NCBI GenBank assembly: GCA_963823665.1
Contig: CAWGMQ010000003.1
Location: 1,248,001 to 1,312,000, forward strand
Direction: 5' to 3'
Length of the DNA stretch: 64,000 bases
Source of the DNA: an uncultured Planctomycetota bacterium
Lineage (GTDB): Bacteria; Planctomycetota; Planctomycetia; Isosphaerales; Isosphaeraceae
The number at the start of each line of letters is the position of its first letter. Within the stretch, counting starts at the first letter, position 1. Shown here one piece after another: positions 11,619 to 29,071 of the stretch. Under the pieces are notes generated by a model. It worked only from the letters and a program-made list of their open reading frames with translations. It was not told the origin of the DNA and did not search any database. The position numbers and the translations under genes were made by a program.

Positions 11619-13192
11619 CTATCTGGCGACGGCTCGGGCTGCGCGGACGGCGTCGCGCGCCTGGAGGAGCCCGGCGCCGAAGGTGTAGTCGCGCCCCTTC
11701 CGGCCGATGTCGCGGCAGGTCTTTTCCATGATCGCCTTGACTTCCCAGGGGCACAGGTCCGGGTTGGCGGAGAGCATCAGCGCGGCGACCCCGGCGGTCT
11801 GCGCGCCAGTGAAGGAGTTGCCGCCCCGGACGTCGACCAGCGCCATCTGGTCGTTCTCCTTCGAGAAGATCGCGCCATTCTCCGGCCGCGCCCAGCGCGG
11901 GAATCCGCCGAACACGCCCGTCACGTCGGGCTTGGCGAGGGGCCGCGACGGCGGGTAGTCTTCGTAGAACTTCACCCCATCCCAGGTGCAGGGGCCTTCG
12001 CTGCTCTCGTCGGCCTTCCTCCCGTCGCGCGTGATGCCGGCCGCGGTGATCACGCAGGGAACGTCCTTGGGCAGGGCGATCTCCTTCCCCCGTCGTAGAC
12101 GAGAGTAATTCCCCGCCCCACCGACGGCGACGATGCCCGCCGCCGACAGGTGCTCGAGCGCCGTCCGATAGAGGCCCCGGTAATTGCCGAGCGGCATGTC
12201 CTCCCACATATAGCTCAACGAGAGCACGTCCGCACCGTGGGCCGGGGCGTACTCGTACGCCTTCAGATAGCCCATGCCGCGCAGGACCATCAGCCGCGCC
12301 GGGGGGCGACGCCGGTGAGCAGATTCAGTGTGTTGATCGGACGGCCGGCGATGATCCCGGCGCACATGCTGCCGTGCGGCCACTTGAGGTCATCCCCGAT
12401 GTTCCAGTACGAGTCGCCCGCGAAGTCGTAGCCGAAGACGTCATCGACATAGCCATCGCCGTCGTCGTCCTTGCCGTTGAAGACCTCGAGGGGATTCCTC
12501 CACAGGGCACGGGTCAGGGCCGGCGTCAGCATGATCCCGGTGTCGTTGAGGGCCACCACGACCCCGCGGCCGGTGACCTTCTCCTCCTTCCACGCGGCGT
12601 CGACCTGGATGGTCGACAGGTTCCAGGAGAGGGTGAAGCCCTGGGTGGTGAACGGCTCGTCGCTGTCGTCCTCCCACTGGGCGATCGTTTGCCGGAAGAA
12701 TCTCTCCTTCTCGGGCGTTGCGGCCGGCTGATCGGGGTCCCGGTGCTGTTTCACCTGGCGGAGCGGGCGGCGCTGGAGATAGACGAAGGCGACCTCCTCG
12801 AGCGCGGCCAGGCGCTGGCAGGCGTCGCCCGTCGCGTCGCAGGTGAAGCCGTTGACGATCCAGTAGCGATCGAGGTCCCGGACCTTCTGTGACTTCTCCA
12901 GCTCGGCGACCCGGGTCGCGACCTGGCCCCACGAGCGGTCGGCCTTGGCTCGGAGCGTCTGGACGATCGCCGGCCGGAGCTCGCGCCGCTTCGCCCCGGC
13001 GTGCTCCGCGCAGAATCGTTCGTAAGCGCCGCGTTCGCCGAGCAACTGGTCGGCCATCCGGACGAACACGGCGTAAGTCTTCCGCCCGGTGCTGCCGATG
13101 TCGCGGTCGATCTTGCCCGCGACGTCGGCGGCGTTCGCCGCCGGGACCAGGCCGAAGAGGAGGGCCACGAAACAGCCCCGTGCCGCCGCCAT
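11619..13192 (-). CDS. S8 subtilisin-like serine peptidase, frameshift near 12300
   Basis: Triad motifs VALNDTG, PHGSMCAGIIAG and GNSFTGAQTAGVAALMLS; NGKDDDGDGYVDD loop; signal peptide and prodomain. Confidence 0.88.
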
Positions 13193-13460
13193 CGATGGAG
13201 GCCGGTAGACTGAGTCGGTATGATATTCCGATGGGCGAATCAACCGGGTCCGTGCCAGGAGTGCGATCATTCCAGGTCCCTCCTGAAGCTCGACTGGGTT
13301 CATTGATGTTAACCCAACGGCGGATGCCCGACAACGCACGAACGGCCGTCACTTCTGATCGTAGTCACAGCCTCGATTCAGGTGGCGACACTGAGCATCT
13401 ACACCCGATTGAGGGCAAGGGGATTCCGCCGGGTCGCCTTGGGGGATCGCTCCCCCAAGG

Positions 13461-15880
13461 GCCGGGTAAGGAGGTGACGTTACCGCCACCCCCTCCCCTC
13501 AGAACTGCACGTGAAAGTTTCCCTTCATGCAGCTCAAGCCTTCACGAACGCCCCTCGCAGGACGCGGCCGCTTTCGTCAGTCGTTCTTGGACATGGATCT
13601 GCCGATGACAGTTGGCATGCAACAACTCCAGGTTGTCGGCTGTGCCAGAACCGCCCCGGCTGCGCCAGATGCGATGGTGGAGATGCAAGTCTTCCTCTGC
13701 GATCCGCAGCGGTTGACCACAGACCACGCATCGTCCCTCTTGTTCCTTCCATAAGTATTCGATCCGACCCCGACCTGCCAGCGTTTGGCTCAGTTGCCAA
13801 CCCAGTCGTGCTTCCAGGTACAGTTCCCACTTCGGATCGTAGGGATTCACGTCGCTCCGGATCTTCACATAACGAATGATCTTCACTTTGGCTGCTTCCA
13901 TCAACTGGATCGGCCGGCCTTGGCCTTTCTGGTCAAACAGCGTACCGGTGAAGACCCAGTGGCGGTAACCGTCTTGCTGGAAGTATTTCTCCTTGATCCA
14001 CCTCCGGCCTTTGTTCTGGTGCCGTCGTCGACACCAACGCCACAATTTCTGGAAAATCCGGTGATCCACGTACGTAAAAGTGCGCTTGCTCGCCGCGTAA
14101 CGGTGGTACATGGTCCAGCCCTTGATCTGCTGATTCAAACGCCAGATCATCTCTCCTGCCGTTAGGCTGCCCGAGCCGTCGATCGTTTCCTGTATCTTGT
14201 TCAAGAACGTCTTCACGTTTCGCAAGGACGGCTTGGTGAACACCTTGCCGCAGCGATAGCGTCGCACATTCTGCCCCAAGAAATCGAAGCCATCCTCCAC
14301 ATGCGTGATCTGGGTTTTCTCGTGGGAAAGTTCCAAGCCGCGTTCCTTCAAGAAATGAGCCACGAGAGGTTGCACTTGGTCACGGAGGAGTTCCTTTGAG
14401 ATGCCCGTGATCAAGAAGTCATCCGCATAGCGGACCAGGTGGACTTTAAACTTCCGTTGTCGCCCGTGCTTCTCGGCGAACTGTTCCGCCAACAGCCGTT
14501 GCAGTCCATCCAGAGTCCAATTCGCCAGGACGGGTGAAATGATCCCGCCTTGAGGTGTTCCTTCCGTGGTGGCGAACCAGGCGTGCTTCTCCAGGAAACC
14601 CACTTTCAGCCATTGCCCGAGCAACTGCCGGTCCATGGGGACGTGCGTCAAGAGCCAGTCATGACTGATGCGATCAAAGCAAGCTTTGATGTCCCCTTCG
14701 AGAATCCATGCTGGACCGCTCCGATTACCCAAGACAATATGAGATTGTTCCAGGGCGTCGGCACAACGACGTTCCAGCCGAAAGCCATAGGAATGGCCGT
14801 CGGCTCGAGATTCCGCAATGGGATCGAGGCCTAGCAAGTATAATGCCTGCATGGCTCGATCTGACATGGTGGGAATTCCGAGAGGACGTCGCTTGCCGTT
14901 GCTTTTGGGAATGTACACCCGGCGGAGCGGTTGCGGTTGGTAACCGTGCCGACGCAGAGTGCTGAAAGCAGCCGACTTGGCTTCCGGTGTGTTCCAGAGA
15001 ACTCCGTCCACACCGGGAGTCTTCGCACCCGAATTACTGATGACTCGCAAAATGGCCAGGGCCCGGCCACTGAACGAGTGCGTGAGCAGATAAACCAGAG
15101 CCTTGACCTTATTCCATCTGCCCTCCGCAACAGCCTTCACGATACGCGCCTGGAGCCGACGGACTGTGCGCCAGACTTTCTTCCATTCGATGGAGTGCCA
15201 GTCGGGCGTAAGCTCGGGAGCCGCACCAGCAAGCATTTCTGCCGCCGACATATCTGCTTGTCTCCCTGAGTCGGTTGGCCAAGGTTCTCTCGTGACGGAA
15301 CACCTGAGGGAAGTCGGCACCGCTTTCGCGGTGAGGGGATGTCGTCCGTGGGAGGACTCACCCTCTATCCGATCGACTACCGAACGGCATTGGCTTGCTC
15401 CCTCATCCTCCACCCGCCGCCCCATCGGCGACGCCTTACGACGGTCCTACCCCGAAGGGAGGGCGACGGGCTTACCACGTTCCACGGATGAATCACGGAT
15501 GGTTTAGGCTCTGCCTCTCCGCCGGTGGCTCGGATGACGACGACAGGGGATGGGAAATCCCACTGTACCTGGCCACGTACCTTTTTGGTTCAAGCCTCTC
15601 AGCGCCTTTGGCTTGTTGGATCTCACGACGTTTATCGGCAGTTCACCTGGATTAGCCATGCCATCCACCCCTGGCCCCCGACCGCATTGGCGTTCGCAGT
15701 CGCCGGATTCCCTCACGGGATATCCAACCACCCGAAGGTGAGGTTACGTTGTCCCAAGAGCTTCGCACGGTCGGATTGCTCCGGCCGCACGTCCTGGTAG
15801 GGTTCCGGTGGTCGTACATCGGGTTATGTCCTGGTTGCAAATCCAGTCATAACAGACTCATCCGCAGCTTCGTTTCGCGA
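13461..15880 (-). mobile_element. Group II intron, inner (CL/IIB-like, RT-maturase-HNH), nested in DVI of the outer intron
   Basis: 5' end TCGCGAAACGAAG at 15880. DV GAGCTGCATGAAGGGAAACTTTCACGTGCAGTTC at 13502-13535. DVI ends CTTACCCGGC at 13461. EBS1 TTCCCA (15551-15556) and EBS2 AGATCC (15618-15623) match the flanking host sequence. Confidence 0.92.
13542..15251 (-). CDS. ltrA: Group II intron-encoded reverse transcriptase/maturase/HNH endonuclease (intact, about 569 aa)
   Basis: RT N-terminal [45 protein letters not shown], domain X, and C-terminal CxxC...HH...NL..LH.NCH HNH. Confidence 0.96.
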
Positions 15881-15927
15881 CTCCCACAGATCCGGGCTTG
15901 CCCAATTAAGGCACCCGGCTCGTCATG

Positions 15928-17278
15928 TCACTTGTTCGCTACGAGACGGCATACTGAGTGGATCGCAATCGCTGCCGGAAGCGGTTTATGCTTCAGGAAC
16001 CGAGCGAACCGTTCCCATGTCATCCGACGGCCGCGCCGCGGCGCGACAGCCAGTGCTGCCAGAGCCAGGTGGCACCACTGCGAAACCGTGACAACATTTT
16101 GGAGTTGCCGGTGATTCCGTAGTAGGCATAGTGGCCTAGCAGTTTCTGACCTAGTATCCGGTGCTGCACCTTGAGCGGTTGATGGCGATTTTGCGACACC
16201 AATCCGCCAACGTTCGCAGGCTGCGGCGAAATCGACTTTTGGACGTCTTGCGCTTCACCACCCAGCGACCCTGCCGGGAGCGACCCCAGTAATGGGTGAA
16301 CGCCAGCAGGTCGAAAGTCCCTGGTGGAGTTCGTGTGGGTCTGCCTTCCGGTTTGGGACGGTCCGATGGCCGCTCGAACGGCACCAGCCGCGTCTTGTCC
16401 GGGTGGATGGTCAAGCCGTACTTCTCAAAGCGTTTGGGCAACACATTCATCACACGCCGTGCGTCGGACTCGCATGAGAAGACCATGACGAAGTCGTCCG
16501 CATAGCGGATCAAGAACGATCTGCCCATCATCCGAGGCTGAACCTCCCGCTCGAACCACTCGTCCAGCACGTAGTGCAGGAAGATATTCGAAAGGATCGG
16601 GCTGATCACACCCCCTTGTGGCGACCCCATTTCGGGGTGCGTAACGCACCCGTTCTCGAAGACGCCCGCATTGAGCCATTTGCCGATGAGCCGGAGCAGC
16701 ACTCCGTCTCGCACCCGACGCTTGAGGAAGTCGCGTAGATGGCCGTGGTCAATCGTGTCAAAGAACTTACGAATGTCCACATCCACTACCCATCCGCCCT
16801 TCATGTTCATCGTCTGTTGCCACAGGCTCTCTGACGCAGTGTGTGCCGATCGCTCGGGCCGGAAGCCATGCGAGCAGTTCTTGAAGTCCTGCTCGTATAT
16901 CGCCTCCAGAACCATCACGACAGCACGCTGGAGCACTTTATCCTCGAAGGTCGGGATTCCCAGTGGCCGGGTTTCGGTCGCTGAGCCTGCCTTGGGGATA
17001 TGCACTCGCCGCACAGGCGGTGCGTGGTACGTACCGGACTTGGCTCGTTCCAGCAGCGACCGTAGGTTCGGGACCAGGTTCGCTGCGTAGGCCTCGCCAT
17101 CTTGTCCGTCTACGCCCACCGCCCCGTCTTGGCGGGTCCGGTAGTAAGCTGTGAGCAGCCAATCGAGGTCGATGAAGTGCCCCAGGGATGTGAATCCCAT
17201 CTCCGGGCTTCGCCGAGCGAGTTCCGCTATCCGTTGTTGTTTCGTGGACACGTCCACGGGTTCCGATGCACCCGCCAT
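15928..17278 (-). CDS. ltrA: Group II intron reverse transcriptase/maturase without endonuclease domain; two frameshifts (~16190, ~16040)
   Basis: AVGVDG, RPLGIP, PQGGVISP, RYADD, FDLLAFTHYW. Continues in shifted frames as GHYAYYGITGN...MTWERF...LP to a stop just before DV. Confidence 0.93.
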
Positions 17279-17857
17279 GTTTCCCTCCAACGGTTGTGTG
17301 ACATGGCGTCTCCTTCCCTCCACCGGGTCCCTCGGAGTGGTTCCCCGGCTTCAACGGTACTACGAGACGCTCCGACTCCCATCCGCCCCTTTCGCCGCAC
17401 TTCGTTGCCTTCGTGTGGCGATACCACCCTTGCGTCCTGTTCGCTCCCAGCGACCCGACGCGGGGTCGTGGGCCGGGGAGTTGGTATTCCGGATCCCGAG
17501 CCGGAAATGTCAGTGGAGACGGATGGGGCTCTCAGGTTCCCGAGCAACCCTCGCGTCCCTGCGCCATGTTCTTGGACCCCGGCAGGACCGAACACGCCAG
17601 GCCATTGCGGCGTGTCGACACGGCCCCCGCTTGTGTCTACAACGGAGGCTCCCACGATGAGTATTTCGGGGCTCGATAGCATGGCATGGAGACTCGCTGT
17701 CTACGCTTCGCAGTGAGGGTCACCCCTCCCCACGCAAGACTTGCTTCCGGCTGCCGGCCAGGCTCTGCCGGGCGGGATTCGTTAACCCGCAGGGTCGCGA
17801 TGAAAGGTTTCTGTGTTTCGAGGCACTTCCTCCTTTCTCGAGCTTTTCCTGACGCAA

Positions 17858-17877
17858 AGACACCCATCGTTTTGTCG
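17858..17877 (-). repeat. GGGTGTCT motif copy (GACAAAACGATGGGTGTCT), forming the 5' exon of the outer intron
   Basis: Near-identical to 20849-20868 (GACAAAAAGGGTGGGTGTCT). Joined to the 3' exon it reads GGGTGTCT|GGAATCCC. Confidence 0.75.
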
Positions 17878-17883
17878 AGGGCG

Positions 17884-18168
17884 TTGACTTCCTATCCACG
17901 GCGAATGATTTTTGACAGCTTGGAGATCCATCTCAGCCACCGGCCGACCCACCGATCCCGCCGAATCAAGGAAATGCGGCCGAACCCCGTTGCCGGGTGG
18001 GAACTGCGGCTCGGTGACTATCGGGTCCTCTATGATGTGGATGATCAGAGGCGCGTCGTCCAAGTCCAGGTCATCGGTGAGAAAGTCGGCAACCGACTCA
18101 TCGTGCAAGGCGAGGAGTATTCCGCCCATGAAAGTGATCGACCTGAACGAGGCGAAGGCGAATCTTGA
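17884..18168 (+). pseudogene. RelE/ParE-family toxin, probably 5'-truncated
   Basis: WELRLGDYRVLYDVD..VVQVQVIGEK RelE signature. The N-terminus is short and abuts the GGGTGTCT motif. Confidence 0.75.
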
Positions 18169-18319
18169 GGGTTATGCCGAAGAGTGCCAACAATCGCCGG
18201 TGATTGTCACGATTGGAGGGATCCCGAAATTCGAGCTCGTCCCGATCCACACGGACGATCCCGAGTTCATCGACCGCCTGCTCGAAGAGAACGAGACGAG
18301 GGCCGCTCGAAAGATCTGA
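18128..18319 (+). CDS. Phd/YefM-family antitoxin, probably 3'-truncated
   Basis: MKVIDLNEAKANLEGYAEEC..PVIVT..G.PKFELVP Phd-like N-terminus; overlaps the toxin gene. Confidence 0.72.
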   Translation: MKVIDLNEAKANLEGYAEECQQSPVIVTIGGIPKFELVPIHTDDPEFIDRLLEENETRAARKI

Positions 18320-18334
18320 GGCTTTCCCCGTATG

Positions 18335-18469
18335 CTACCAGTTTGAACCCGTGTCTTCGTCGAGGCTGACCCGACTCTTGCCGACGCGCACGGCGCCCGG
18401 CTCGTCTACTCGGAGCGGAGGCGGGTCGGCATGGATGGGAAGCAACTCGTTCAGTTCACTCTCGTTCAT
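18335..18469 (-). pseudogene. DUF433-family antitoxin N-terminal fragment
   Basis: ADPPPLRVDEPGAVRVGKSRVSLD matches the DUF433 start. Similarity stops at ~18359, next to GTGTCT (18351-18356). Confidence 0.65.
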
Positions 18470-18844
18470 GACGCGACACTCCGCGGCATTCACCCGTTGG
18501 GGTCTATCGTGCGTCGCCACTTACACTGTATACCAAGGCGGCTGGCATCGGTAGTTCGGTTGGACGGCGAGCGAGGCTGTGAGCAGCCGGGCTCCGCGCC
18601 TGGGTTGGCGCAACGTCAAGATCGGTTCGTGACACCTTTGCTGGGAATTCGATTGGATTCGAGGCCGGCCAGTGATGTTTCCTTCGCCGGCGCGGCAAGT
18701 GACGAACTCGTCGCATCGGTCGGCGCGACGCACGCGGCCGAGCGGGGCCCAGATACCCGCTGTGTGCCGGTTGAAGTGGATGCCCTAAACTGCCCCGATG
18801 ACCGGGTGTTTGCCTTGCTCCGCGCCTTCCTTACTTGGATGAGT

Positions 18845-18903
18845 GGGTGTCTGCCTTCCATTCCCCCCAAAGGTGGGTGTCTGACATCCGGTGTCTGACA
18901 TCC
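18845..18903 (+). repeat. Cluster of GGGTGTCT motifs with a 14-bp perfect tandem duplication (GGTGTCTGACATCC x2)
   Basis: Motifs at 18845, 18875 and 18890; duplication units 18876-18889 and 18890-18903. Confidence 0.8.
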
Positions 18904-19372
18904 CCGGCCAACGAATTCGCCAACCTCTGGCAGCGCCGCATCTCCTTCCGTGTCGGGGCGCTGATCACCGGGGTGGTCGGCGTCGTGATCCAGACGTGGC
19001 GGCTGATGGAGGACTCTTCCGGCTACATCTTCAAGTGGCTCATCGCTTACTCGGCGCTGCTCGGCGCGATGGGCGGCGTCCTCATCGCGGACTACTTCCT
19101 GGTGTGCCGGACGCGGCTCGACCTGCAGGCGTGGGGCGGGTCGTGCTGGTACACGGGCAGCTTCCACGCCGCCGGCCTGCTAGCCCCCGCCGGCGAGGGT
19201 CATCCCCTGCGTGCCGGGGTCCCTGGCCACCGTCGGACTGGTAGAGGTGATGCCGTCCTTGACGGACCTGTACCACTCTGCCTGGTCTCTCGGTTTCGGG
19301 ACGTCCCTCCTGGTATACTCGGGCCTGACGCTCCGGCGCCCCGGCGGGGCCGCGTCGCCACGCGGCTCTTGA
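18901..19372 (+). pseudogene. NCS1 nucleobase:cation symporter (cytosine/allantoin permease), C-terminal fragment
   Basis: SPANEFANLW.RRISFRVGALITGVVG...WLIAYSALLGAMGGVLIADYFLV. Starts immediately after the motif and degenerates downstream. Confidence 0.78.
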
Positions 19373-19397
19373 CGACCTCAAAGGGGAGAGGGCAACG

Positions 19398-20135
19398 ATG
19401 GACACCGAATACGACCGGATCGCGGAGCAGTACCAGCGGGCGAGGCTCCAGCCGTGGCGGACGCACATCGAGCGCTACACGCTGCTCCGACTGGCCGGCG
19501 ACGTGGCGGGGAAGGCGGCGATCGACCTGGCCTGCGGGGAGGGGTACTACACCCGCGCACTCCGTCAGCAGGGCGCCGCGCGGATCGTCGGCGTGGACCT
19601 GTCGCGCGCGATGATTGGGTTGGCCGAGGCCGAGGAGGCGCAACGGCCGCTGGGCGTCGAGTACCGCGTGGGGGATGTCCGGTCGCTGGAGGTGCCCGGG
19701 GAGTTCGACCTGGCCTTCGCGGCGTACCTGCTCAACTACGCCCACTCGGCCGAGGAGCTGGAGCAAATGTGCCGGGCGGTGGCCCGCGCGCTGAGGCCCG
19801 GCGGGCGTTTCGTGACGGTCAACAGTAACCCCGCAGAGCCGATTGTCGCCTTCCCTGCGGCCCGCGCCTACGGCTTCTCGAGGCGCGTCGAGGGGGAGTT
19901 GGTGGAAGGTGCACCCGTCGTCTTGGAGTTCTTCCTGCCCGAAGGCTCCTTCGAGGTGACGAACTACTACCTCAGCGCGGGGACGATGGAAAAGGCGTTC
20001 CGCGCGGCGGGCCTGCGCCAGCTGCGCTGGCACGCGGCCGAGGTCTCGCCCGAGGGCCTGCGCGAGTTCGGCCAGGAATACTGGGCGGACTTCCTCGCCC
20101 ACCCGCCGGTGGCCTTCATCGTTTGCGTCAAGTAG
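19398..20135 (+). CDS. Class I SAM-dependent methyltransferase (ToxA-like)
   Basis: Motif I IDLACGEG, VGVDLS, FDL..AAYLLNYA, LRPGGRFV; RBS GGGGAG upstream. Confidence 0.9.
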   Translation: MDTEYDRIAEQYQRARLQPWRTHIERYTLLRLAGDVAGKAAIDLACGEGYYTRALRQQGAARIVGVDLSRAMIGLAEAEEAQRPLGVEYRVGDVRSLEVPGEFDLAFAAYLLNYAHSAEELEQMCRAVARALRPGGRFVTVNSNPAEPIVAFPAARAYGFSRRVEGELVEGAPVVLEFFLPEGSFEVTNYYLSAGTMEKAFRAAGLRQLRWHAAEVSPEGLREFGQEYWADFLAHPPVAFIVCVK

Positions 20136-20710
20136 GTCTCCGGCAGGGGATGCGTGGTGGCCGGCCTGGAAGGGCGGTCCCCGGTTGACGGCGCCGCCAG
20201 TCCGGGGCTCAGCCCGACCCAGTCCGCATCGCCAAGTCGCGTGTACTGCACCGCCTCAAAGAGCGATTCGGCGAGCTGATCCAGGAAGCACGACTCCTTT
20301 CCGCCCTCGTGCCGCTTTGGTGTGACAGACCGCGCATTCCTTCTTCAGGACCCGGCCTCGCTCTCATCGCGAGGATGGAACTTACTTATGTTCCTATGCT
20401 GTCGTCAACCGACGAGAACCTAGACTTGTGCGGCCCAGCGAGTCGCCTTTCTTTCCTCTTGCGCGCGTCGGTCCGACGACACCGACGCATTTTCTGGCTT
20501 GGGGAAAGTGGCGACTGGATTTGAGCTCGCGACGGCACGGCACCGATCCTGCCGGTCACGGCTTATCGCCATGTGACATAACCGGTGAGCATTTCACGAA
20601 AAACACCTGTTCTTCGTTAGCCCGATTCTGAAATGCTCCGTTCTGCGGAGATGGGGCAAAGAACCCCAAGCTCATCCGCTGCATTCGAAGCATTCCACGG
20701 ACACCCTCTT

Positions 20711-20739
20711 TCGAGCTTTTCCTGACGCAAAGACACCCA
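20711..20739 (-). repeat. 29-bp exact copy of the outer intron's 5' exon/intron junction (20-nt intron stub)
   Basis: tcgagcttttcctgacgcaaagacaccca is identical at 17838-17866 and 20711-20739. On the minus strand it is followed by another motif variant, GGGTGTCC (20699-20706). Confidence 0.85.
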
Positions 20740-20848
20740 CCTTCTGCGCAGCGTCGGACACGCGCCTTCTTTTTGTCGAAATGACGGGCGGCAGTGCCGT
20801 GGTTCTCCGCCGAACGTGTGGGCCGCGAATTCATGGATGCGGGGCCGT

Positions 20849-20885
20849 GACAAAAAGGGTGGGTGTCTGGATTCCCTGGATTCCC
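20849..20885 (+). repeat. Empty GGGTGTCT^GGATTCCC motif with a 9-bp tandem duplication (CTGGATTCC x2)
   Basis: gacaaaaagggtgggtgtctggattccctggattccc matches the reconstructed intron target site. Confidence 0.75.
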
Positions 20886-21664
20886 GATTTACACCGGTGT
20901 ACGGATGCTTGACAGCCTCGTATAAGCGCCATTTTCCGCCACTTTCCGCCACTCTTCCATGGTCAGAACGTTCATCCCCGTTCGATCCGCATGTCCAATC
21001 TGGATCAAAGGATCAGACCTGGCCGGTGCGTTTCCTAGCGATCGAAAAAGGCTCGTGGCGCCTGCCGCACAAAACTGCCACAGTCATGCGACCATGTTGT
21101 TCACTATGTTTGAACGGCTTTTTTCGATGCGGAAACAACGAGCGAATGGAGCACACAGCTTTCACAATGGGTGGGGGCCTGGCGAGTCGCTTGCAACGAG
21201 CGGGGGGTGCAGGGGTTTGTTCCCTTAACCCTTGCGGGGAAAGGACGCGCGTCGAATATACAAAACGAAACGGACCCGGTCATTACACGTATTTGCTCGG
21301 CATCGACCGCTGAATGGTTGACGCCCATTTATATAACCGCGGCGACACACCTCAGTTTCCTCACGAAACTTCCCATCCGGGCCCAAACATGATGGCGGCA
21401 ACAACCGCCTACTTCGGGCTCGAGCACGAAGTATTGATTATGCTGCTGGAAGGCCATGAAAGGCCGTCGTAAGGTCGCTGGATCTGACACGGCGAAAAAA
21501 GTGGCGACGCGTTGGATTTATTTTGGCGAACGACGACCGGTCAGATACCATGGCAGCGACCGGAGTACGCGGAGCGCGTCCAAGCGCCTTCGTGAGGTGC
21601 GGATTCTCCCATCTCTGTTCGCAGAATCGCGCACGACCAGTCGTTGTTGAGGCGGCGCAAGCGA

Positions 21665-22552
21665 ATGACAAGCACGTTGACCGATAAGGACTGGGAGATC
21701 CTCCTGCGGCGCATCCCATTGGGCAAGTGCGTGCCGTTCCTGGGTGCCGGCGCGTGCTACGGTGCTCTGCCGCTCGGGGCCGAGATCGCGCGCGAATGGG
21801 CTGAGCGGTTCCACTATCCGATGCCGGACAACGGAGACCTGGTGCGGGTTTCGCAATTCCTGGCTGTGGAGTATGACCTGACCTACCCCAAGGAGCTGGT
21901 ACTCGAGCGTCTGGGCAGCGGGAAACCTCCGGACTTTCGGGCGGCCGATGAGCCCCACGGCGTGCTGGCTGACTTGCCGCTGCCGATCTACGTGACGACC
22001 AACTACGACGACTTCATGATGAAGGCCCTGGCGACCCGCTGGCGCGACCCGAAGCGGGAGTTCTGTCGCTGGAACGAGCTGATTCGCGAACAGCCGACAC
22101 TCTTCGACACGGAGCCGACCTACGAACCGACGGTCGCCAGACCACTGGTCTATCACATGCACGGGCATACTGACCCCAACTCGATCGTCCTGACCGAGGA
22201 CGACTACCTGACGTTCCTGGCGGCCATGCAGGACCCCAAGCTGCTGCCGGATGCTGTGCACAAGGCCATAGCCGGCTCCTCGTTGCTGTTTGTCGGCTAC
22301 CGGATGGCCGACTGGAACATCAGGGTGCTGCTTCAAGGATTGCGACGGCTCGGCCAGGGGCTCGCGGGAAAGGGCAACCTGAGCGTGATGGTGCTCGTCC
22401 CGCCCGATGGGCCGGACGGCACCCAGCAGAAAATGCAGGACTACCTCGACCGCTACTATGCGGCGATGGACATGCGGGTGTATTGGGGCACGGCTCGCCA
22501 GTTTTGCGCCGAGCTGGGTTCGCGCTGGAAACAGCGTCAACAGCCGGCTTGA
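21665..22552 (+). CDS. SIR2-like (SIR2_2) domain protein, putative NADase effector with intact motifs
   Basis: PFLGAGA, YVTTNYDD, YHMHGH, IVLTEDDY, LLFVGYRMADWN. Confidence 0.88.
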   Translation: MTSTLTDKDWEILLRRIPLGKCVPFLGAGACYGALPLGAEIAREWAERFHYPMPDNGDLVRVSQFLAVEYDLTYPKELVLERLGSGKPPDFRAADEPHGVLADLPLPIYVTTNYDDFMMKALATRWRDPKREFCRWNELIREQPTLFDTEPTYEPTVARPLVYHMHGHTDPNSIVLTEDDYLTFLAAMQDPKLLPDAVHKAIAGSSLLFVGYRMADWNIRVLLQGLRRLGQGLAGKGNLSVMVLVPPDGPDGTQQKMQDYLDRYYAAMDMRVYWGTARQFCAELGSRWKQRQQPA

Positions 22553-22615
22553 CGGCCCGACGCTCCCTTCAGGTCGATCTCACTGAAACTTCATCTCTTG
22601 ACGGAGGCTCAACCG

Positions 22616-23575
22616 ATGCCCGAAGCAACCCCCTCGCCGCCTGCAATCGTGTTGAGGCGTTCCGAGGCCCTCGATGACGAAGGGTGGAAAGTATTGCTCC
22701 GCAGAATCCACACTCAAAAGTGCACTCCCTTCCTGGGGCCCGAAACCTGTTTCGACTTCTCGATTCCCTCAGCCTCGGTGCTTGCCGGGGAATGGGCCGA
22801 CGAGCATGACTATCCGTTCGACGACCGGAACAACCTTCCGCGTGTCGCGCAGTTCGTCGCCTACCAGGCTCATCAGGGAATCATCGACGAGGTCAAGATG
22901 GATCTCGCCGAGAAGTTTCACGGCCTGAAAATGCCCGATTTCTCCCACCAGGAAGATCCTTATCGGATCCTGGCCAGCCTGCCGCTCTCCGTCTACATCA
23001 ACACCCATTACTTCGCGTTCATGTCCTATGCCTTGCTGGCTCAGCACAAAGAACCCCAGAAGGTCGTCTGCCGCTGGAATGACATGGAGGCCTCGGAGGA
23101 CGAACCCGGCCTGCCCGCCGCCTACGATCCCAAACCGGCTTGCCCTCTCGTGTTCCACATGTTCGGCCACGTGGCCGAACCTTCATCGCTGGTCCTGACG
23201 GAGGACGACTACCTCGACTTCCTGGTCCGCACATCGGACAAACAAGATTTAATTCCTCAATGCGTTCAGAACGCAATGAGGAACAATTCCCTGCTCTTTC
23301 TGGGTTACCAGACCAACGATCTGGACTTCCGCGTCATCCTCCGAAACCTCTCCCGGATCAGAAGGGACCCGAGGAAGAGCTCCAACTATACGATCCAGTT
23401 CGTCCACGTCAGCGATGACAAGGTCACGTCCGAGCAAATCGATCGGCTCAAAAGCTATTTCAAGGACTACAACAAGAGCATGGCGATCAGCGTCTACTGG
23501 GGAACCACGGGTGAGTTCATGACCGAGCTTCGCCAGCGGTGGGAGGTCTACTGTGTCAACAGCCAGGTTGCTTGA
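22616..23575 (+). CDS. SIR2-like (SIR2_2) paralogue with degenerate catalytic motifs
   Basis: PFLGPET, YINTHYF, FHMFGH, LVLTEDDY, LLFLGYQTNDLDF; RBS GGAGG at 22603. Confidence 0.85.
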   Translation: MPEATPSPPAIVLRRSEALDDEGWKVLLRRIHTQKCTPFLGPETCFDFSIPSASVLAGEWADEHDYPFDDRNNLPRVAQFVAYQAHQGIIDEVKMDLAEKFHGLKMPDFSHQEDPYRILASLPLSVYINTHYFAFMSYALLAQHKEPQKVVCRWNDMEASEDEPGLPAAYDPKPACPLVFHMFGHVAEPSSLVLTEDDYLDFLVRTSDKQDLIPQCVQNAMRNNSLLFLGYQTNDLDFRVILRNLSRIRRDPRKSSNYTIQFVHVSDDKVTSEQIDRLKSYFKDYNKSMAISVYWGTTGEFMTELRQRWEVYCVNSQVA

Positions 23576-26500
23576 GCCGGCCCCGCCCGAGTCCAGCCCG
23601 GCCGTCCCGGCGATCACCGAGGCTCCGTACGTCGGTCCCCGGCCTTTTCTCTCCGCCGACTGCGAGCGGTTCTTCGGTCGGGACCGCGAGGCCATCGACC
23701 TGAAGCACCGGGTCATGGCTCACCCGATCACGCTGCTCTACGCGATGTCCGGCGCGGGCAAGACCTCGCTGATCAACGCGAGGTTGGTCCCCGAGCTGAA
23801 GAGCCAGTCCTGCCACGTCCTGGATTCTGCCCGGGTGCAGGGCTCGTCATGGAAACTCGAGCCCGGGGGGATTCGCAACATCTACGTGTTTCACGCCGTG
23901 ATGAGCTGGCAGAGCCAGTGCGACGCGGGCACGGCCCGACGGCTCAAGGATCAGACTCTCAGCGAGGAGCTGGCGCCCAGGGCGAAGCGTGCTGATCTTG
24001 ATGACGCGCTTTTGATCGCGATCTTTGATCAGTTCGAAGACTCTTCACAGCATACCCCTCAAGATGGGGAGAGCGCCGGGGATTCTTCGAGCAGCTTTCC
24101 GACGCCCTGGAGTCGATCTCGAATCTCCGGGTGTTGCTCGCGATGCGCGAAGACTGGCTGGCGTCGCTCGATCCTTTCGCGAGCCTGGTGCCCGAGAACC
24201 TGCGGACGAGGTTTCGGCTCGAGCGGCTCCGTCGCGCGGCCGCCCTGGAAGCGGTCGTGAATCCGCTAGAGGGCACCGGACGGAAGTTCGCCCCCGGCGT
24301 CGCCGAGACGCTCATCGACAACCTCATGACCATTCGCGTCCGGCGTAGCCGCGATGCGTCGGGGGCCCGATCCGACAACGGCGATCCGGGTGTCCTGGGC
24401 ACGGATGGCGGTCTATCCGTCACGACCCTCGTTGTCCCAGGTTGCCAGCCCGAGTCAAACGACTACGTGGCCCAGTCTGAATATGTCGAGCCCGTCCAGA
24501 TGCAGGTCGTCTGCCAAACCCTCTGGTCCAATCTCGAGGCCGGCGAGACCGAGATCACGGCCGAGAACCTGGAACGGTGCGGCGACGTCAACCAGGCTCT
24601 GTCGCGGTTCTATGAAGATTGCGTCAAGCAAGCGTCCCGGTTGCCTGGAGTGCGCGAAGGAGACATTCGGCGCTGGTTCGACGAGCGGCTCATGACTCCG
24701 GCCGGGACGCGGGGGCTGGTGCTCCGGGAACCAGACAAAACGGGCGGCTTGGGCAACGACGCGGTCGACTTACTCGAGGGCTGCCATTTGATTCGAGGTG
24801 AGGACCGGGGCGGCGCGCGGTGGTACGAGCTATCGCACGACCGATTCATCGAACCCGTGCGGAATTCCAACCGCCACTGGCAGAGCACTCGTCCTGGCCA
24901 GGCGCTCTGGTTCGAGCTCAACCGTCGGGCCGCAGCCTGGGATGCCGCGCCGGCCGAGAAAAAGCCTTCCTTGTTGCTCAGTAAGGCCGACCTGGACAAG
25001 GCCGAAGCTTGGAGCAAGACCGATTCCGACGAGCTGGGCTTGAGCGACCGGCTCGCGCGATTGCTCGACGAAAGCCGAGACGCCATCGATCGGGCCGAGC
25101 TGGCTGATCGGCTCGAGGATGAGCGCCGGCAGGCGAGAGACAAAGCCCTCAGGATCCGAGTCCTCACCTGTGGAGCGGCTGCGCTCGCGTTACTGTCGGC
25201 GCTGGCGCTCGTCGGCTGGTGGACCGCGAACGAGAACAAGAAGAAAGCCGATCAGTTTGCATCGGAGAGGACGAACGAGGCAAAGGGCGCCCGCGAGCAG
25301 GAGGTCCGGGCCGAGAACGAAAAGAACAAGGCCATGGTCAGCCAGTGGGCCATGCAAGCGACGTTGCAGAAGGAACCTACGTCCGTCCTGGGCGACATCC
25401 AGAAGGTGATCAGAGTCGCCGAAACGGAAAAGTGGCCTCAGCTCGAGGATGGTACGCAGGACTCCATTCGGTATGCCCTCTCCCACCTCACCCACCGGAG
25501 CAAGCTCGGGCCGTACGCCGAGTCCGTCAACGAGGTCGTCTTTGCACCGCAGCGATGGGGTGACGCCCTCCGGGACGGAAGCACGAATCCCGTCGTCGCC
25601 GTCGGCGGCCGGGACGGACTGGTCGAGCTGTGGAGCGTGGGCGATTACGACAACCCCGAAGACGACAAGTCGCTCACGGTGATTCGCGTGCCGGCGCTCG
25701 CGGACCCAGGGAAGTCCGGACGGTGGGTCAACCGGATCGTGTTCGCTCCGGCGGGCCGGATGCTGGCATTCTGCACTGGCGATACCACGAGTTTGAATCC
25801 TGCGGACCGCGGCGGCGCCTGGGTCTGGACGGCGGCCGAGTCGCCCGACGGGAAAGGTGAGTTGCACGCGCTCGAAACCGCGGGCAATTCCGGACCTGTC
25901 GCTGACGTCGCGTTCAGTCCCAACGGCGCCTCGGTTGCCATCGCGGGTAGTCGAGCACTCGGCAGCGCAAGCAATCCTGCGGCCGATGGCGTCTGGAAGG
26001 GCGCCGTTCGAGTCTGCGAGGCAGCGACCGGGAAGCTGCTCCACGAATTCCCGCTCAAGGGCCCGGCCCGAAGCGTCATGTTCGACCATCAAGGTGAGCG
26101 ACTCGTCGCGGCGAGCGGGGATGCCAACGGCGATAACCACAACCTGCCGGGACAAGTGGTCGTCTACAAGCTGAGCACCGGAGCTCCCACACTGATGAAG
26201 GACTACGAACACCCCTCGGTCCGCGCCGTGTTCAGCCCCTACGGGAACGTGGTGGTCTCGGCGGGCGTCGACGGCGTCGGACGGGTATTCGACGCCGCGA
26301 AGGGCAACCTGATCGCGACGCTGGTCGGCCACTCGCAGCAAATCACCGCCCTCGATTTCAGCCACGACGGCACACTTCTGGTCACCGCCAGCGGTGACCG
26401 GACGGCGCGGGTCTGGGATCCCTCCTCTTGGTCCGGCTCTGGCGATGGGGCGTCGCCCTCCACGTGGTCGAGCCGGGTGACGTTGGTCGGGCACAAGTCG

Positions 26501-29071
26501 TCATTGCTTCACGCGGAGTTCAGCCCGGACAGCACCATCGTCCTCACCTCGAGCTCCGACCGCACGGCGCGCGTCTGGGATGCACAGACCGGAGAGTGCC
26601 TTGTCTCCCACGTCGGCCACGACGGCGCAGTCAACGTGGCCCGGTTCAGCTCCCGCGGATTCATCCTGGCGACCGCCGGCAGCGATAAGACCGCCCGTGT
26701 CTGGACGACGGGGCCAGTCGAGACGGCCCGGGGGATACTCGTCGGCCACGCGGCGGCGCTGCGCGACGTCGAGTTCTCGCCCAAACCCGGGAGCTGCCTG
26801 GCCCTGACAGCCGGGGCCGACGGCGTCGCGTTCCTCTGGGATGTCTCTGGACTGGACAAACCCGGGAAGATCGATCCCAAGCACCGCTACGCGCCCGGGA
26901 CAGCCCCCGCCGCGCTGACCGATCTTGCCTTTAGCCCCGACGGCGATCGCTTCGCAACGGCGAGCCTCGACGGCACGGTCAGGGTCTGGCTCCTCGACAG
27001 CGAGACCCCGCTCACGGTCATTCAACCCAAGGCTGGAGCGGCCCTCGGCGTGACTTTCAGCCCGAAGGGCACGTACTTGCTCACATCGTGGACCGACGGA
27101 AAGATCCGGCTCTATCGTCGTGACGGAGATGACTACAAGCTGGCCGCCGACCCATGGCCGGGCTCAGCGTTTCGGCTCACGCCGCACCTCTTCGACAAGG
27201 ATGAGCGGGTCGTGGTCACCCCCAACGCCGGTCTGCTCCGGGTCAAGGGTGAGACCGGAACGGTGCAGGTCTGGGACGTCGCGACCGGCGCTTGCGTCCA
27301 AACCCTGAAGGGGCCCGGCGGCCTCCTCGGGCCCGTATCCGACCTGGCCGTTCAACCCGAGAGCCGCTCCATCGCCGCCGCCATTGAGGGGCCCTCCGGA
27401 ACGGTCGTCGTCTGGGACGAGCACGGGCAACTGACCGCCTCGCCCTTGAGCCATCCCGGTGGGGTCGAGCGAGTGGCCTTCAGTCCTGACGGGAAGTCGC
27501 TGGCGACGGAAGCCGAAGACGGGATCGGGCGGATCTGGGACTGGCCCCTCCGTAGCGGCCAGAAGCCAACAGCCAGCCTTCCTGGTCTGACCGGGCCTTC
27601 ACCCGTGCTCGCCTTCAGCGAAGACGGGTCGCATATCGCGAGCGACGGCGGCTACCTGGCAACGGACACCGGCGCGTGCATCGCACAGGTCTGGCACCTA
27701 TCCGGCCAACCGCCGGCGGTAGGCCGGTCCACGACTTCATTAAGCGGCCCGCGCGATTCGGTGGTGGCGCTTTCTCTACGTCGCGCCGAGGTCGCCGAAG
27801 TGCTCACGATCAACCGCGAGAACCGCTTCCAGCGATGGGCGACCGACACCGGCGGCCCGCTTGGCTCTTGCCGCGGGCCATACCTGACTCCGACTGCAGC
27901 GGCCGTCAGCCCCGATGGGACCCTGGCCGTCGCCGGCTCCGCCCAGGGCGCACTGGTACTCTGGAAGACGGATACAGCTCGACTGGTGGCGGACATGGAC
28001 GGCCACACCGCGGGAATCACCAGTGTGTCGTTCAGCCGCGACGGCCGAAGCATATTGAGCAGCGGCCTCGACGGCAAGGCGTTCGTCTGGTCGGTGCCTG
28101 ACCGAGAAGCCCAGAAGCTCCAACTGCAAAACGCGAGTCTTGTACGCCTCTCGCCGCGCGCCACTTTCCCGCCCAACGGCAGTCCCGTAGCAACCACGGT
28201 CGCCTGCTTCCTTGACTCTCTTGGCCGCCAGGTCGTTACCGGCACCGGCGACCTCAAGCGCGAGCGATGGCAGCCCGAAAAAGAGATGGAGTCACAGGCG
28301 TTTGCCTACCGACTCGACCTCGCGAGCCCATTCCCTCAGCCCGAGAAGGTCGTGGCAGTGACCAAGCTGGAACGCGACAACGACGCGGAGGATGCTCCGC
28401 TGGGCGCGCTGGCGGTGGCCGTCAGCCCCAGTGGCTCCCTCGTCTTCGTGGCTTGCGGCGGTTCGGACCCCATCTTTGACCTCGTCCGGTCCGCAGACCC
28501 GTTCACCGGTAAACTCGACTCGAAGCCCTTCCTCGGCCACACCGACCCAATCCTCGACGTGGCGGTCAGCCCCGACGGAAAGCAAATAGCCACGGCGAGC
28601 GCAGACAACACCGCCCGCGTTTGGACGGTCGACCACTCCAAGGTCGTCGAGCTGCGGGGGCACTCCGGCGATGTCGCCTCGGTGGCATTCAGCCCTGAAA
28701 ATGAATTCGTCCTGACGGTGAGTCGCCAGGACGGCACAGCGCGGGTCTGGGACCGCAACGGAGGGGATCCCCTGTACGTCCTCGGGACCCGTCGAGCCGG
28801 GTTCAACAGCGCCACCCTGGACGATCCCCCCGGCCCGCGCCAGTACACTGACGACGTGGTCGCCGCCGCTTTCAGCTCCGACGGCAAGCTGCTGATCACG
28901 GCCCACGGCGACGGCAACGCCCGAGTCTACCGCTTGGAATTGTGCGGCGGGTTTGACGACCTGAAGGAAGTCGCTAAAAAACGGCGCGAGGGGTTCGAGG
29001 ATAAATCGCGAGTGGGCCAGAGCCATGCCCGAGACCGTCGAGCTGGTTCCGCGGACCCAACTTCTCGTTGA
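23553..29071 (+). CDS. nSTAND1-type NTPase with TM helix and large WD40 array; frameshift near 24040
   Basis: PYVGPRPF..FFGRD, Walker A AMSGAGKTS, Walker B IFDQFE, LLAMRED, YELSHD, TM AAALALLSALALVGWW, then many GH...FSPDG...RVWD repeats. Joins ORFs 23553-24260 and 24131-29071. Confidence 0.9.

Follow-up and report, generated by a model that had tools for sequence, protein, structure and literature searches.

A probable scar field of TnpA-Y1 subclass 2.3 transposon ends, colonised by a group II intron, in an Isosphaeraceae genome

Positions 17,858 to 20,885 of the stretch analysed here (the window, 64,000 nucleotides of contig CAWGMQ010000003.1 from the uncultured Isosphaeraceae assembly GCA_963823665.1) hold a patchwork of gene fragments punctuated by short copies of the word GGTGTCY. 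We believe that the region is probably a scar field left by an element carrying an HUH/Y1 transposase of TnpA-Y1 subclass 2.3 and by its non-autonomous derivatives, and that a group II intron colonised it later. A first-pass annotation had proposed that the motif is a recombination site used in trans by an enzyme encoded elsewhere, such as an HUH/Y1 transposase, and this idea has held up: a subclass 2.3 Y1 gene bounded by the motif lies elsewhere in the genome, and the tips of the motif fall at edges of homology far above control. The genome-wide statements below rest on searches and on fetched stretches picked for motif density; G000 is this genome (16.5 Mb), other G numbers are genomes of relatives, and L numbers are fetched loci.

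The end motif and its mini-elements

The copies of (G)GGTGTCY first reported are all present, at 17858–17864(−), 18846, 18876 and 18890(+), 20699(−), 20731(−) and 20862(+), as is a bare GTGTCT at 18351–18356. An eighth copy, GGTGTCC at 19400(−), was absent from the earlier list; we take it for chance, because it sits inside the start of a methyltransferase gene and is also present in the G008 copy of that gene. The 7-mer is not enriched across the 64-kb window (16 observed, 15.7 expected) and is clustered within it, 8 of the 16 copies lying within 3,028 bp (scan p 0.0002), as is the 9-mer TGGGTGTCT, with 5 of its 7 window copies in the same region (p 0.0004, both by a uniform-placement test). 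Genome-wide, TGGGTGTCT has 334 exact copies versus 45 for its reversed control, and GTGTCT is hardly enriched (3549 versus 3161); the informative word is the 9-mer and not the 7-mer or the bare GTGTCT.

Surveying the ends in the fetched loci gave 162 distinct YGGGTGTCT sites, 20 with an intron and 142 without. The intron-free sites have the consensus YGGGTGTCT-GRNWT-CC(C), with the tail C at +6 in 119/142 and at +7 in 104/142, weak conservation past +9, and an abrupt change of sequence thereafter; the full motif is TGGGTGTCT plus a tail of 5–9 nt. Tandem duplications occur at 48 of the 142 ends: their right junction falls at +5 to +9 in 43 of the 48, and their left start is variable, from within the motif to 86 nt upstream. 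Longer exact duplications, of 80–123 bp of flank, also begin at an element tip (L049, L056, and L047/L048) and have the same geometry.

What is conserved and repeated is the stretch enclosed by two outward-facing motifs, and not the cargo beside it. Many of the 334 copies belong to non-autonomous mini-elements of about 135 bp; a pattern search for two outward ends 95–125 nt apart returned 29 units versus 0 in the control, and the mini-element at 20731–20868 has 47 genome matches from 40 of the 111 candidates scored. There are several unrelated families, from 66 to 259 bp, common only in their ends. The mini-elements have the traits of miniature inverted-repeat transposable elements (MITEs), being short, non-coding, multicopy and bounded by terminal inverted repeats. 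The GT[AG]G foot and the hairpin at each end that mark repetitive extragenic palindromes (REPs) and their paired form, REPINs, are missing from these ends, and the predicted fold of the mini-element pairs both ends together, not each end with itself. A scan of genome contigs for the motif pattern gave 53 loci, many of them isolated chance matches; the recurrent, element-like matches in named records come from Isosphaeraceae/Planctomycetota.

The HUH/Y1 transposase

The first-pass annotation had advised looking for a recombinase gene flanked by the motif. A Y1 gene with both ends is present at L047 (G000:C3:449022–450248), as an intact frame of 409 aa with an outward motif on either side; the upstream end carries stacked duplications. 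Autonomous copies with both ends in this genome are L047, L399, L401 and the internally deleted L405, and L408 in G001, at 63% protein identity, also has both. Four of 11 near-full-length copies (≥80% identity, G000 and G001) have both strict ends, and in another, L003, the upstream end is filled by a group II intron (intron A, below). The terminal repeat is short, about 9–11 bp (L047, L399, L401, L408).

By its motifs and insertions, the predicted protein is a member of HUH/Y1 TnpA-Y1 subclass 2.3. L047 contains NHLH and YVDLNP, and N75, H76, H78 and Y189–P194 are invariant in 15/15 aligned rows. Alignment with hhalign against the TIRYT family has a probability of 99.2%, with 10 and about 51 inserted columns, which we identify with the insertions of subclass 2.3 because they sit where the available text of Quentin et al. 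(2018, PMC6006769) places them. The model NF047646 matches all 15 members, the first of them below its cut-off, a Pfam search of the L047-type protein gave no match, and a 325-aa Shewanella protein with the same upstream end is 51% identical, the C-terminal block giving a 36% alignment.

The protein first surfaced as weak matches to the profile of the short TIRYT-type Y1 genes. These genes were themselves considered as the partner of the motif and rejected, as they have other end motifs (PF01797, in G000 and ten relatives, with part of the matches fetched); none of the inspected loci in those genomes has a PF01797 Y1 gene with an intact pair of the present ends, and at L036 the motif interrupts a TIRYT gene. 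A promoter-anchored pattern for the partner's end was also discarded, having returned mostly chance matches and other mini-element families.

Elements with the long HUH/Y1 gene have TGG(G/A)TG(T/G)C, facing outward, as their end. Around relatives of about 33–83% identity in metagenome and phylum loci, the outward motif is found in 36 of 76 upstream and 27 of 82 downstream flanks, and the inward control in 1 and 3, respectively; the top de novo 6-mers in the relatives' flanks are TGGGTG, GGGTGT and GGTGTC. The relaxed form TGGRTGNC marks 98 ends in distant relatives, 89 of them with enough flank to be scored; 32 of these carry duplications, versus 101 of 2000 control points. In plasmid records of Alteromonadales, TGGGTGTCT lies upstream of the relative in two of three. 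Across 121 genomes of the family, a relative of ≥67% identity is held by 7 of the 9 genomes with ≥18 motif matches and by none of the other 112, the threshold having been set afterwards and kin genomes not being independent.

Junctions at the tips

The association of the motif with breakpoints, a check proposed at the outset, was clear when family ends from all fetched loci of several genomes were pooled and an edge was scored within 4 nt of the predicted tip: the tip is an edge of homology at 29/173 ends versus 34/1200 control points, and among ends with any edge nearby the edge is at the tip in 29/45 versus 34/274. These 29 ends comprise 18 with a testable opposite end, 9 without a partner and 2 with an intron at the partner. 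In none of the 18, which include three apparently intact or near-intact autonomous copies, does the homologue continue at the opposite end, as it would in the clean insertion of a MITE between the two halves of its target, some partners being doubtful and some homologues local duplicates. As none of these two-ended elements looks like a simple insertion, each end seems to have been joined separately. What is observed throughout is a fixed junction 5–9 nt beyond the motif with unrelated flanks.

On the single-strand chemistry of HUH enzymes, as summarised in PMC6006769, the transposase would work in trans and on a single strand, probably at the replication fork, where it would bind the motif and nick 5–9 nt beyond it. 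The freed 3′-OH tip would be joined to, or prime copying from, a second place; were this a few bases back, a micro-duplication would result, and were it far away, a new junction with a deletion, an inversion or a captured fragment. With each end acting alone, fragments would pile up between stacked ends.

The same enzyme could also have moved whole units in two-ended, MITE-like transposition, the unrelated flanks arising later through adjacent deletions and recombination between copies. Complete units do exist in many copies with conserved insides, so whole units move, and classical insertion sequence (IS) ends are known to cause adjacent deletions. Nevertheless, we regard this as unlikely, given the absence of a target kept on both sides in the 18 elements above, the duplications with one fixed and one free end, and the existence of lone tips and of stacks of differing tips, such as that at 18844–18903.

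The tips adjoin mostly non-coding DNA (26/142 are coding-like versus 288/600 random points), the opposite of an enrichment in coding DNA, an idea which was accordingly dropped; this avoidance of genes speaks against a device for gene capture. A Pfam scan of 31 of the 36 candidate frames at tips (three window frames and two likely chance sites were left aside) gave matches for 11, at least seven of which are cut within a domain at the tip; the domains are Cas1, lipase, hydrolase, C39 peptidase, oxygenase, RHS and Y1. The Cas1 gene, in G001, is cut mid-domain at the element tip (L250:18724–19293). A split lipase in G001 was considered as a simple insertion, and this was rejected since its flanks come from different genes.

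A tyrosine recombinase working on an integron-like array of cassettes, as first suggested, would be in keeping with the toxin–antitoxin and other small genes near tips in the window and in G001. We consider it extremely improbable: the cargo consists of fragments of broken genes in both orientations and not of whole cassettes, the sites face outward from conserved spacers, the majority of the tips adjoin non-coding DNA, and the motif is tied to the Y1 gene. An integron array would have whole-gene cassettes in one orientation, each closed by an attC site, unlike these fragments, and a tyrosine recombinase is not required, no search for one or for IntI having been made.

Assembly artefacts at repeats might likewise create duplications and junctions, and the assembly is indeed incomplete (91.9% complete, 12 contigs), with no sequencing run examined that covers the whole stretch. 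There is hardly any likelihood of this, however, as the same geometry recurs in many independent assemblies and metagenome contigs, the duplicated units are often unlike their source, and the break at 18903 agrees to the base with three independent sequences. The soil-run contigs, from other organisms, include none that spans the stretch and, among those listed, none with a joint at the motif.

Architecture of the window

Within the region and the intron beside it, the features are as follows (strand in brackets).

13428..17857 (−): group II intron A, in an element end after TGGGTGTCT; about 2010 nt without its nested intron; Rfam RF02005 at 17567–17781
13427 (−): start of the 3′ exon of intron A, where the element-end tail GGAATCCC resumes, by boundary comparison
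17638–17633 (−): exon-binding site 1 (EBS1) of intron A, AGACAC, pairing with intron-binding site 1 (IBS1)
17659–17654 (−): candidate EBS2 of intron A, CATCGT
16151..17323 (−): reverse transcriptase (RT)/maturase of intron A; Pfam RVT_1; TIGR04416 299.9 bits against a cut-off of 300
13461..15880 (−): group II intron B, with an RT-X-HNH open reading frame at 13542–15425; Rfam RF02012 and RF00029; Pfam
17858..17876 (−): 19-bp remnant of a mini-element end (motif 17858–17866), forming the 5′ exon of intron A (IBS1, candidate IBS2)
17877..18298 (+): RelE/ParE–Phd toxin–antitoxin pair, cut at both ends; 93% to G012:C30 across exactly that span
18299..18358 (no strand): 60 bp holding the bare GTGTCT (18351–18356); no similar sequence among the fetched loci
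18359..18640 (−): inverted N-terminal fragment of a DUF433 gene; 83% to G000:C3:717451, a paralogue with PF04255
18644..18859 (+): remnant of an autonomous subclass 2.3 element, 3′ non-coding arm and end (motif 18844–18852)
18868..18904 (+): family-A mini-element tip, stacked on the preceding end; 14-bp duplication GGTGTCTGACATCC; NCS1 junction at 18903
18903..20485 (+): captured segment with a C-terminal NCS1 permease fragment, a methyltransferase and a dispersed repeat; Pfam; G008 94.5%; X1/X5 contigs about 99%
19398–20135: intact-looking SAM methyltransferase; Pfam
20420–20503: dispersed repeat of another kind, in the captured segment
20711..20730 (−): 5′ stub of intron A (20 nt, all identical), within the mini-element's left end
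20731..20885 (no strand): complete family-A non-autonomous mini-element, 138 bp from motif to motif, both outward

The window thus contains one mini-element (20731–20885) and three end remnants. The 14-bp and 9-bp micro-duplications first reported are both real, the second being CTGGATTCC in the right tail of the mini-element. The further claim that gene breaks coincide with the motif is borne out at the NCS1 fragment, less so at RelE and doubtfully at DUF433. Similarity of the NCS1 fragment to G008 (94.5% over 1264 bp) begins exactly at 18903, where the duplicated tip ends. Two soil runs unrelated to each other, X1 and X5, have contigs (about 99%) that diverge from the window at the same base; the G008 gene is itself a fragment, about 150 nt longer and behind a different repeat. 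The RelE break (17877) lies 11 bp inside the motif and not at the tip, as would be the case had a 19-bp tip been copied onto RelE. The toxin is without about 17 N-terminal residues and the Phd antitoxin, cut at 18298 where there is no motif, without about 30 C-terminal ones.

The DUF433 fragment breaks at 18359, 2 nt from the bare GTGTCT, whose tie to the motif is doubtful because it is without TGG and the usual tail. The GGTGTCC at 20699–20705 comes after the intron stub and also misses the usual tail; both copies are doubtful. The motif at 18844, on the other hand, is read as the remnant of an autonomous end because 18645–18706 matches the L047 3′ arm at 84% identity.

Group II introns at the tips

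Two of the motif copies, at 17858 and 20731, are insertion sites of group II intron A, which the first-pass annotation had overlooked. On its boundaries and base pairing, intron A homes into the motif through predicted EBS1 pairing, inserting between the motif and its tail. Its 5′ end follows GTGTCY, and 21/21 genome sites read TGGGTGTCY, a context found at about one-tenth of GTGTCT sites genome-wide; the 3′ exons examined complete the element tail. In the window copy EBS1 AGACAC pairs with IBS1 GTGTCT at 6/6 positions. Candidate EBS2, CAUCGU, matches the window site at 6/6 and most other sites of its own at 4–6/6, and EBS2–IBS2 co-variation across relatives was not clean.

Intron A has domain I and V/VI RNA structure and an RT frame (Rfam, Pfam, TIGR04416), in which the Pfam and TIGR04416 searches found no endonuclease domain and whose C-terminal part is frameshifted in the window copy relative to that in L006; the RT may be akin to group II class E. 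Its commonest form is 732–733 nt and has no open reading frame. Intron B is nested in domain VI of intron A, making a twintron, and the same nesting is seen in several copies of intron A and in a relative (L045, L050, L054, L058, L061).

Related introns have at least 17 distinct EBS1 variants, each matching its own 5′ exon. Ten read cores of the Y1-end type (GTGTCT, GTGTCA, GGGACA, GGGTCA, CTGACA, CTGACC, GCGTCC, CAGACA, ATGTCC and TTGACA), the CAGACA target being the opposite strand of the same motif, and at least seven others read unrelated targets. At L224 and L285 the intron precedes a TIRYT gene by no more than about 100 bp. Repeated insertion after ACGAAG, in A-rich surroundings, is seen for relatives of intron A whose EBS1 is CTTCGT (L535–L541 and L547, in G008 and G049); ACGAAG is a repeated intron target, not a Y1-end core.

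Given about 20 near-identical intron copies in motif-dense clusters and the 5′ stub at 20711–20730, one might ask whether the intron itself makes the junctions, by reverse splicing, template switching of the RT or recombination between its copies, with the motif as a mere target. This is very unlikely, since 142 of the 162 motif sites have no intron, the junctions lie 5–9 nt past the insertion point while intron copies retain the 3′ exon tail, and motif and duplications flank Y1 genes on distant metagenome contigs.

Strength of the assignment

Several observations weigh against a subclass 2.3 element and its derivatives as the source of the scars. Family A is assigned to this element because of the shared end: its mini-element has only the end motif in common with autonomous copies, with no internal likeness, and none of its 158 local alignments falls within 600 bp of a subclass 2.3 gene. 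Of the 11 near-full-length copies, 4 have the strict motif on one side only, and in 2 it is missing from the 700 nt to both sides. Distant relatives do not conserve the CC tail, and the match between motif and gene is imperfect across genomes: G046 (73% complete) has 124 motif matches and a best relative only 47% identical, G060 is the other motif-rich genome without a relative of ≥67%, and G206 and G009 have relatives of 64–66% with few motif matches. The structure model has a mean pLDDT of 50; its top VIA match, 2vhg (IS608 TnpA; Z 6.4, root-mean-square deviation 5.2, 110 aligned), is inconclusive on the tool's scale, Foldseek with this weak model gave no match at E 0.001, and the best profile match in the PDB was ISDra2 TnpA at E 0.58. 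In the window, the breaks at 17877, 18298, 18359 and 18640 have no tip. The continuity test included doubtful partner ends (spans of 2.1 and 3.6 kb) and homologues that were local duplicates, and the cut site and chemistry are what we infer.

A wider reading, which we offer tentatively and think rather doubtful as a whole, would join these observations. Subclass 2.3 Y1 enzymes would be one-ended joiners and not usual transposases, each TGGGTGTC tip an independent cut-and-join point, and the hundreds of mini-elements portable joints by which large genomes have foreign or local DNA spliced into them, a form of gene shuffling free of cassettes and recombinase. An intron clade would follow the tips by re-tuning EBS1 and may switch ends off by displacing the tail from the motif.

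Relation to known systems

Judged by sequence features, the system appears to work like a TIRtron with MITE-like derivatives, and it does not behave as REPs, clean insertions or integrons do. The TIRYT/TIRtron system, of subclass 2.1 (Di Nocera et al., 2013, PMC3733652), also has, in the passages available, a Y1 gene between short inverted ends and dispersed end families in dimers or clusters, with no junction behaviour reported there; it differs in its motif (GGGGWSAS, versus TGGGTGTC) and in the subclass of its enzyme. In the genomes studied here, TIRYT ends have the same core-plus-tail layout and the same stutter. Another comparison is with the IS91/ISCR rolling-circle elements, which use HUH chemistry, have one fixed and one variable end and capture adjacent DNA. 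Their enzymes are of the Y2 type and their ori and ter ends are distinct, whereas here both ends carry the same motif and show fixed junctions.

The protein shares with subclass 2.3, as far as the text of PMC6006769 describes it, the NHxH and YVDLNP motifs, core insertions of 10 aa (β1/αA) and about 55 aa (β3/αC), many diverged copies per genome and relatives in Alteromonadales, and perhaps the long C-terminal tail. It is longer (409 aa against a median of 325 aa). The paper found no REP-like flanking sequences for the subclass, and GGGTGTC is absent from two of its supplementary files; here defined ends, mini-elements and junction scars are present. REP/REPIN–RAYT and IS200/IS605 systems (PMC5581495, PMC6006769, in the parts available) similarly rely on an HUH/Y1 enzyme that works in trans on short non-autonomous units, each with a pair of inverted ends; unlike them, the present units have no GTAG foot, no REP hairpin and no clean insertions (0/18).

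Intron A, for its part, resembles the group IIC-attC introns (PMC7923331) and the REP-targeting IS (PMC1525189) in that, going by the sections available, a retroelement or IS has specialised on the site of another mobile system. It differs from the former in its 6-nt EBS1 and candidate EBS2 (IIB-like), in having no evident need for a stem-loop, and in relatives that retarget to differing Y1 ends on either strand. No publications on these ends or on intron homing to them were found, coverage of subscription journals being thin and absence from print not shown.

The published survey of subclass 2.3 Y1 proteins gave no DNA site for them. With the end motif and the junction position read from natural scars, the enzyme becomes directly testable with short oligonucleotides. 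If each end was joined alone, this would be a mode of HUH-driven rearrangement unlike the peel-and-paste of IS200/IS605 and the spread of REPINs, and it would supply very large bacterial genomes with gene fragments. The intron is a plain example of a mobile element that has specialised on the ends of another, with a recognition code legible in EBS1.

Neighbouring sequences

The dispersed repeat at 20420–20503 has the hairpin GCGTCGGT-loop-ACCGACGC; it is present many times in G015 and G021, and its contig depth in the soil runs is high. In G008 one copy sits just ahead of the NCS1 fragment, and the NCS1–methyltransferase segment may be a mobile unit bounded by this repeat. Other dispersed repeats, both abundant in G000 and G001, occupy 20884–21156, starting at the right junction of the mini-element, and 21170–21270.

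Downstream, 21644–29071 looks like a conflict or defence locus, with two SIR2-like genes (PF13289) followed by an NTPase-like frame that is broken, in the list of open reading frames, into 23553–24260 and a WD40-rich frame of 1646 aa. On the other side of the introns, a subtilase (PF00082) at 11619–13339 (−) is divided between two frames.

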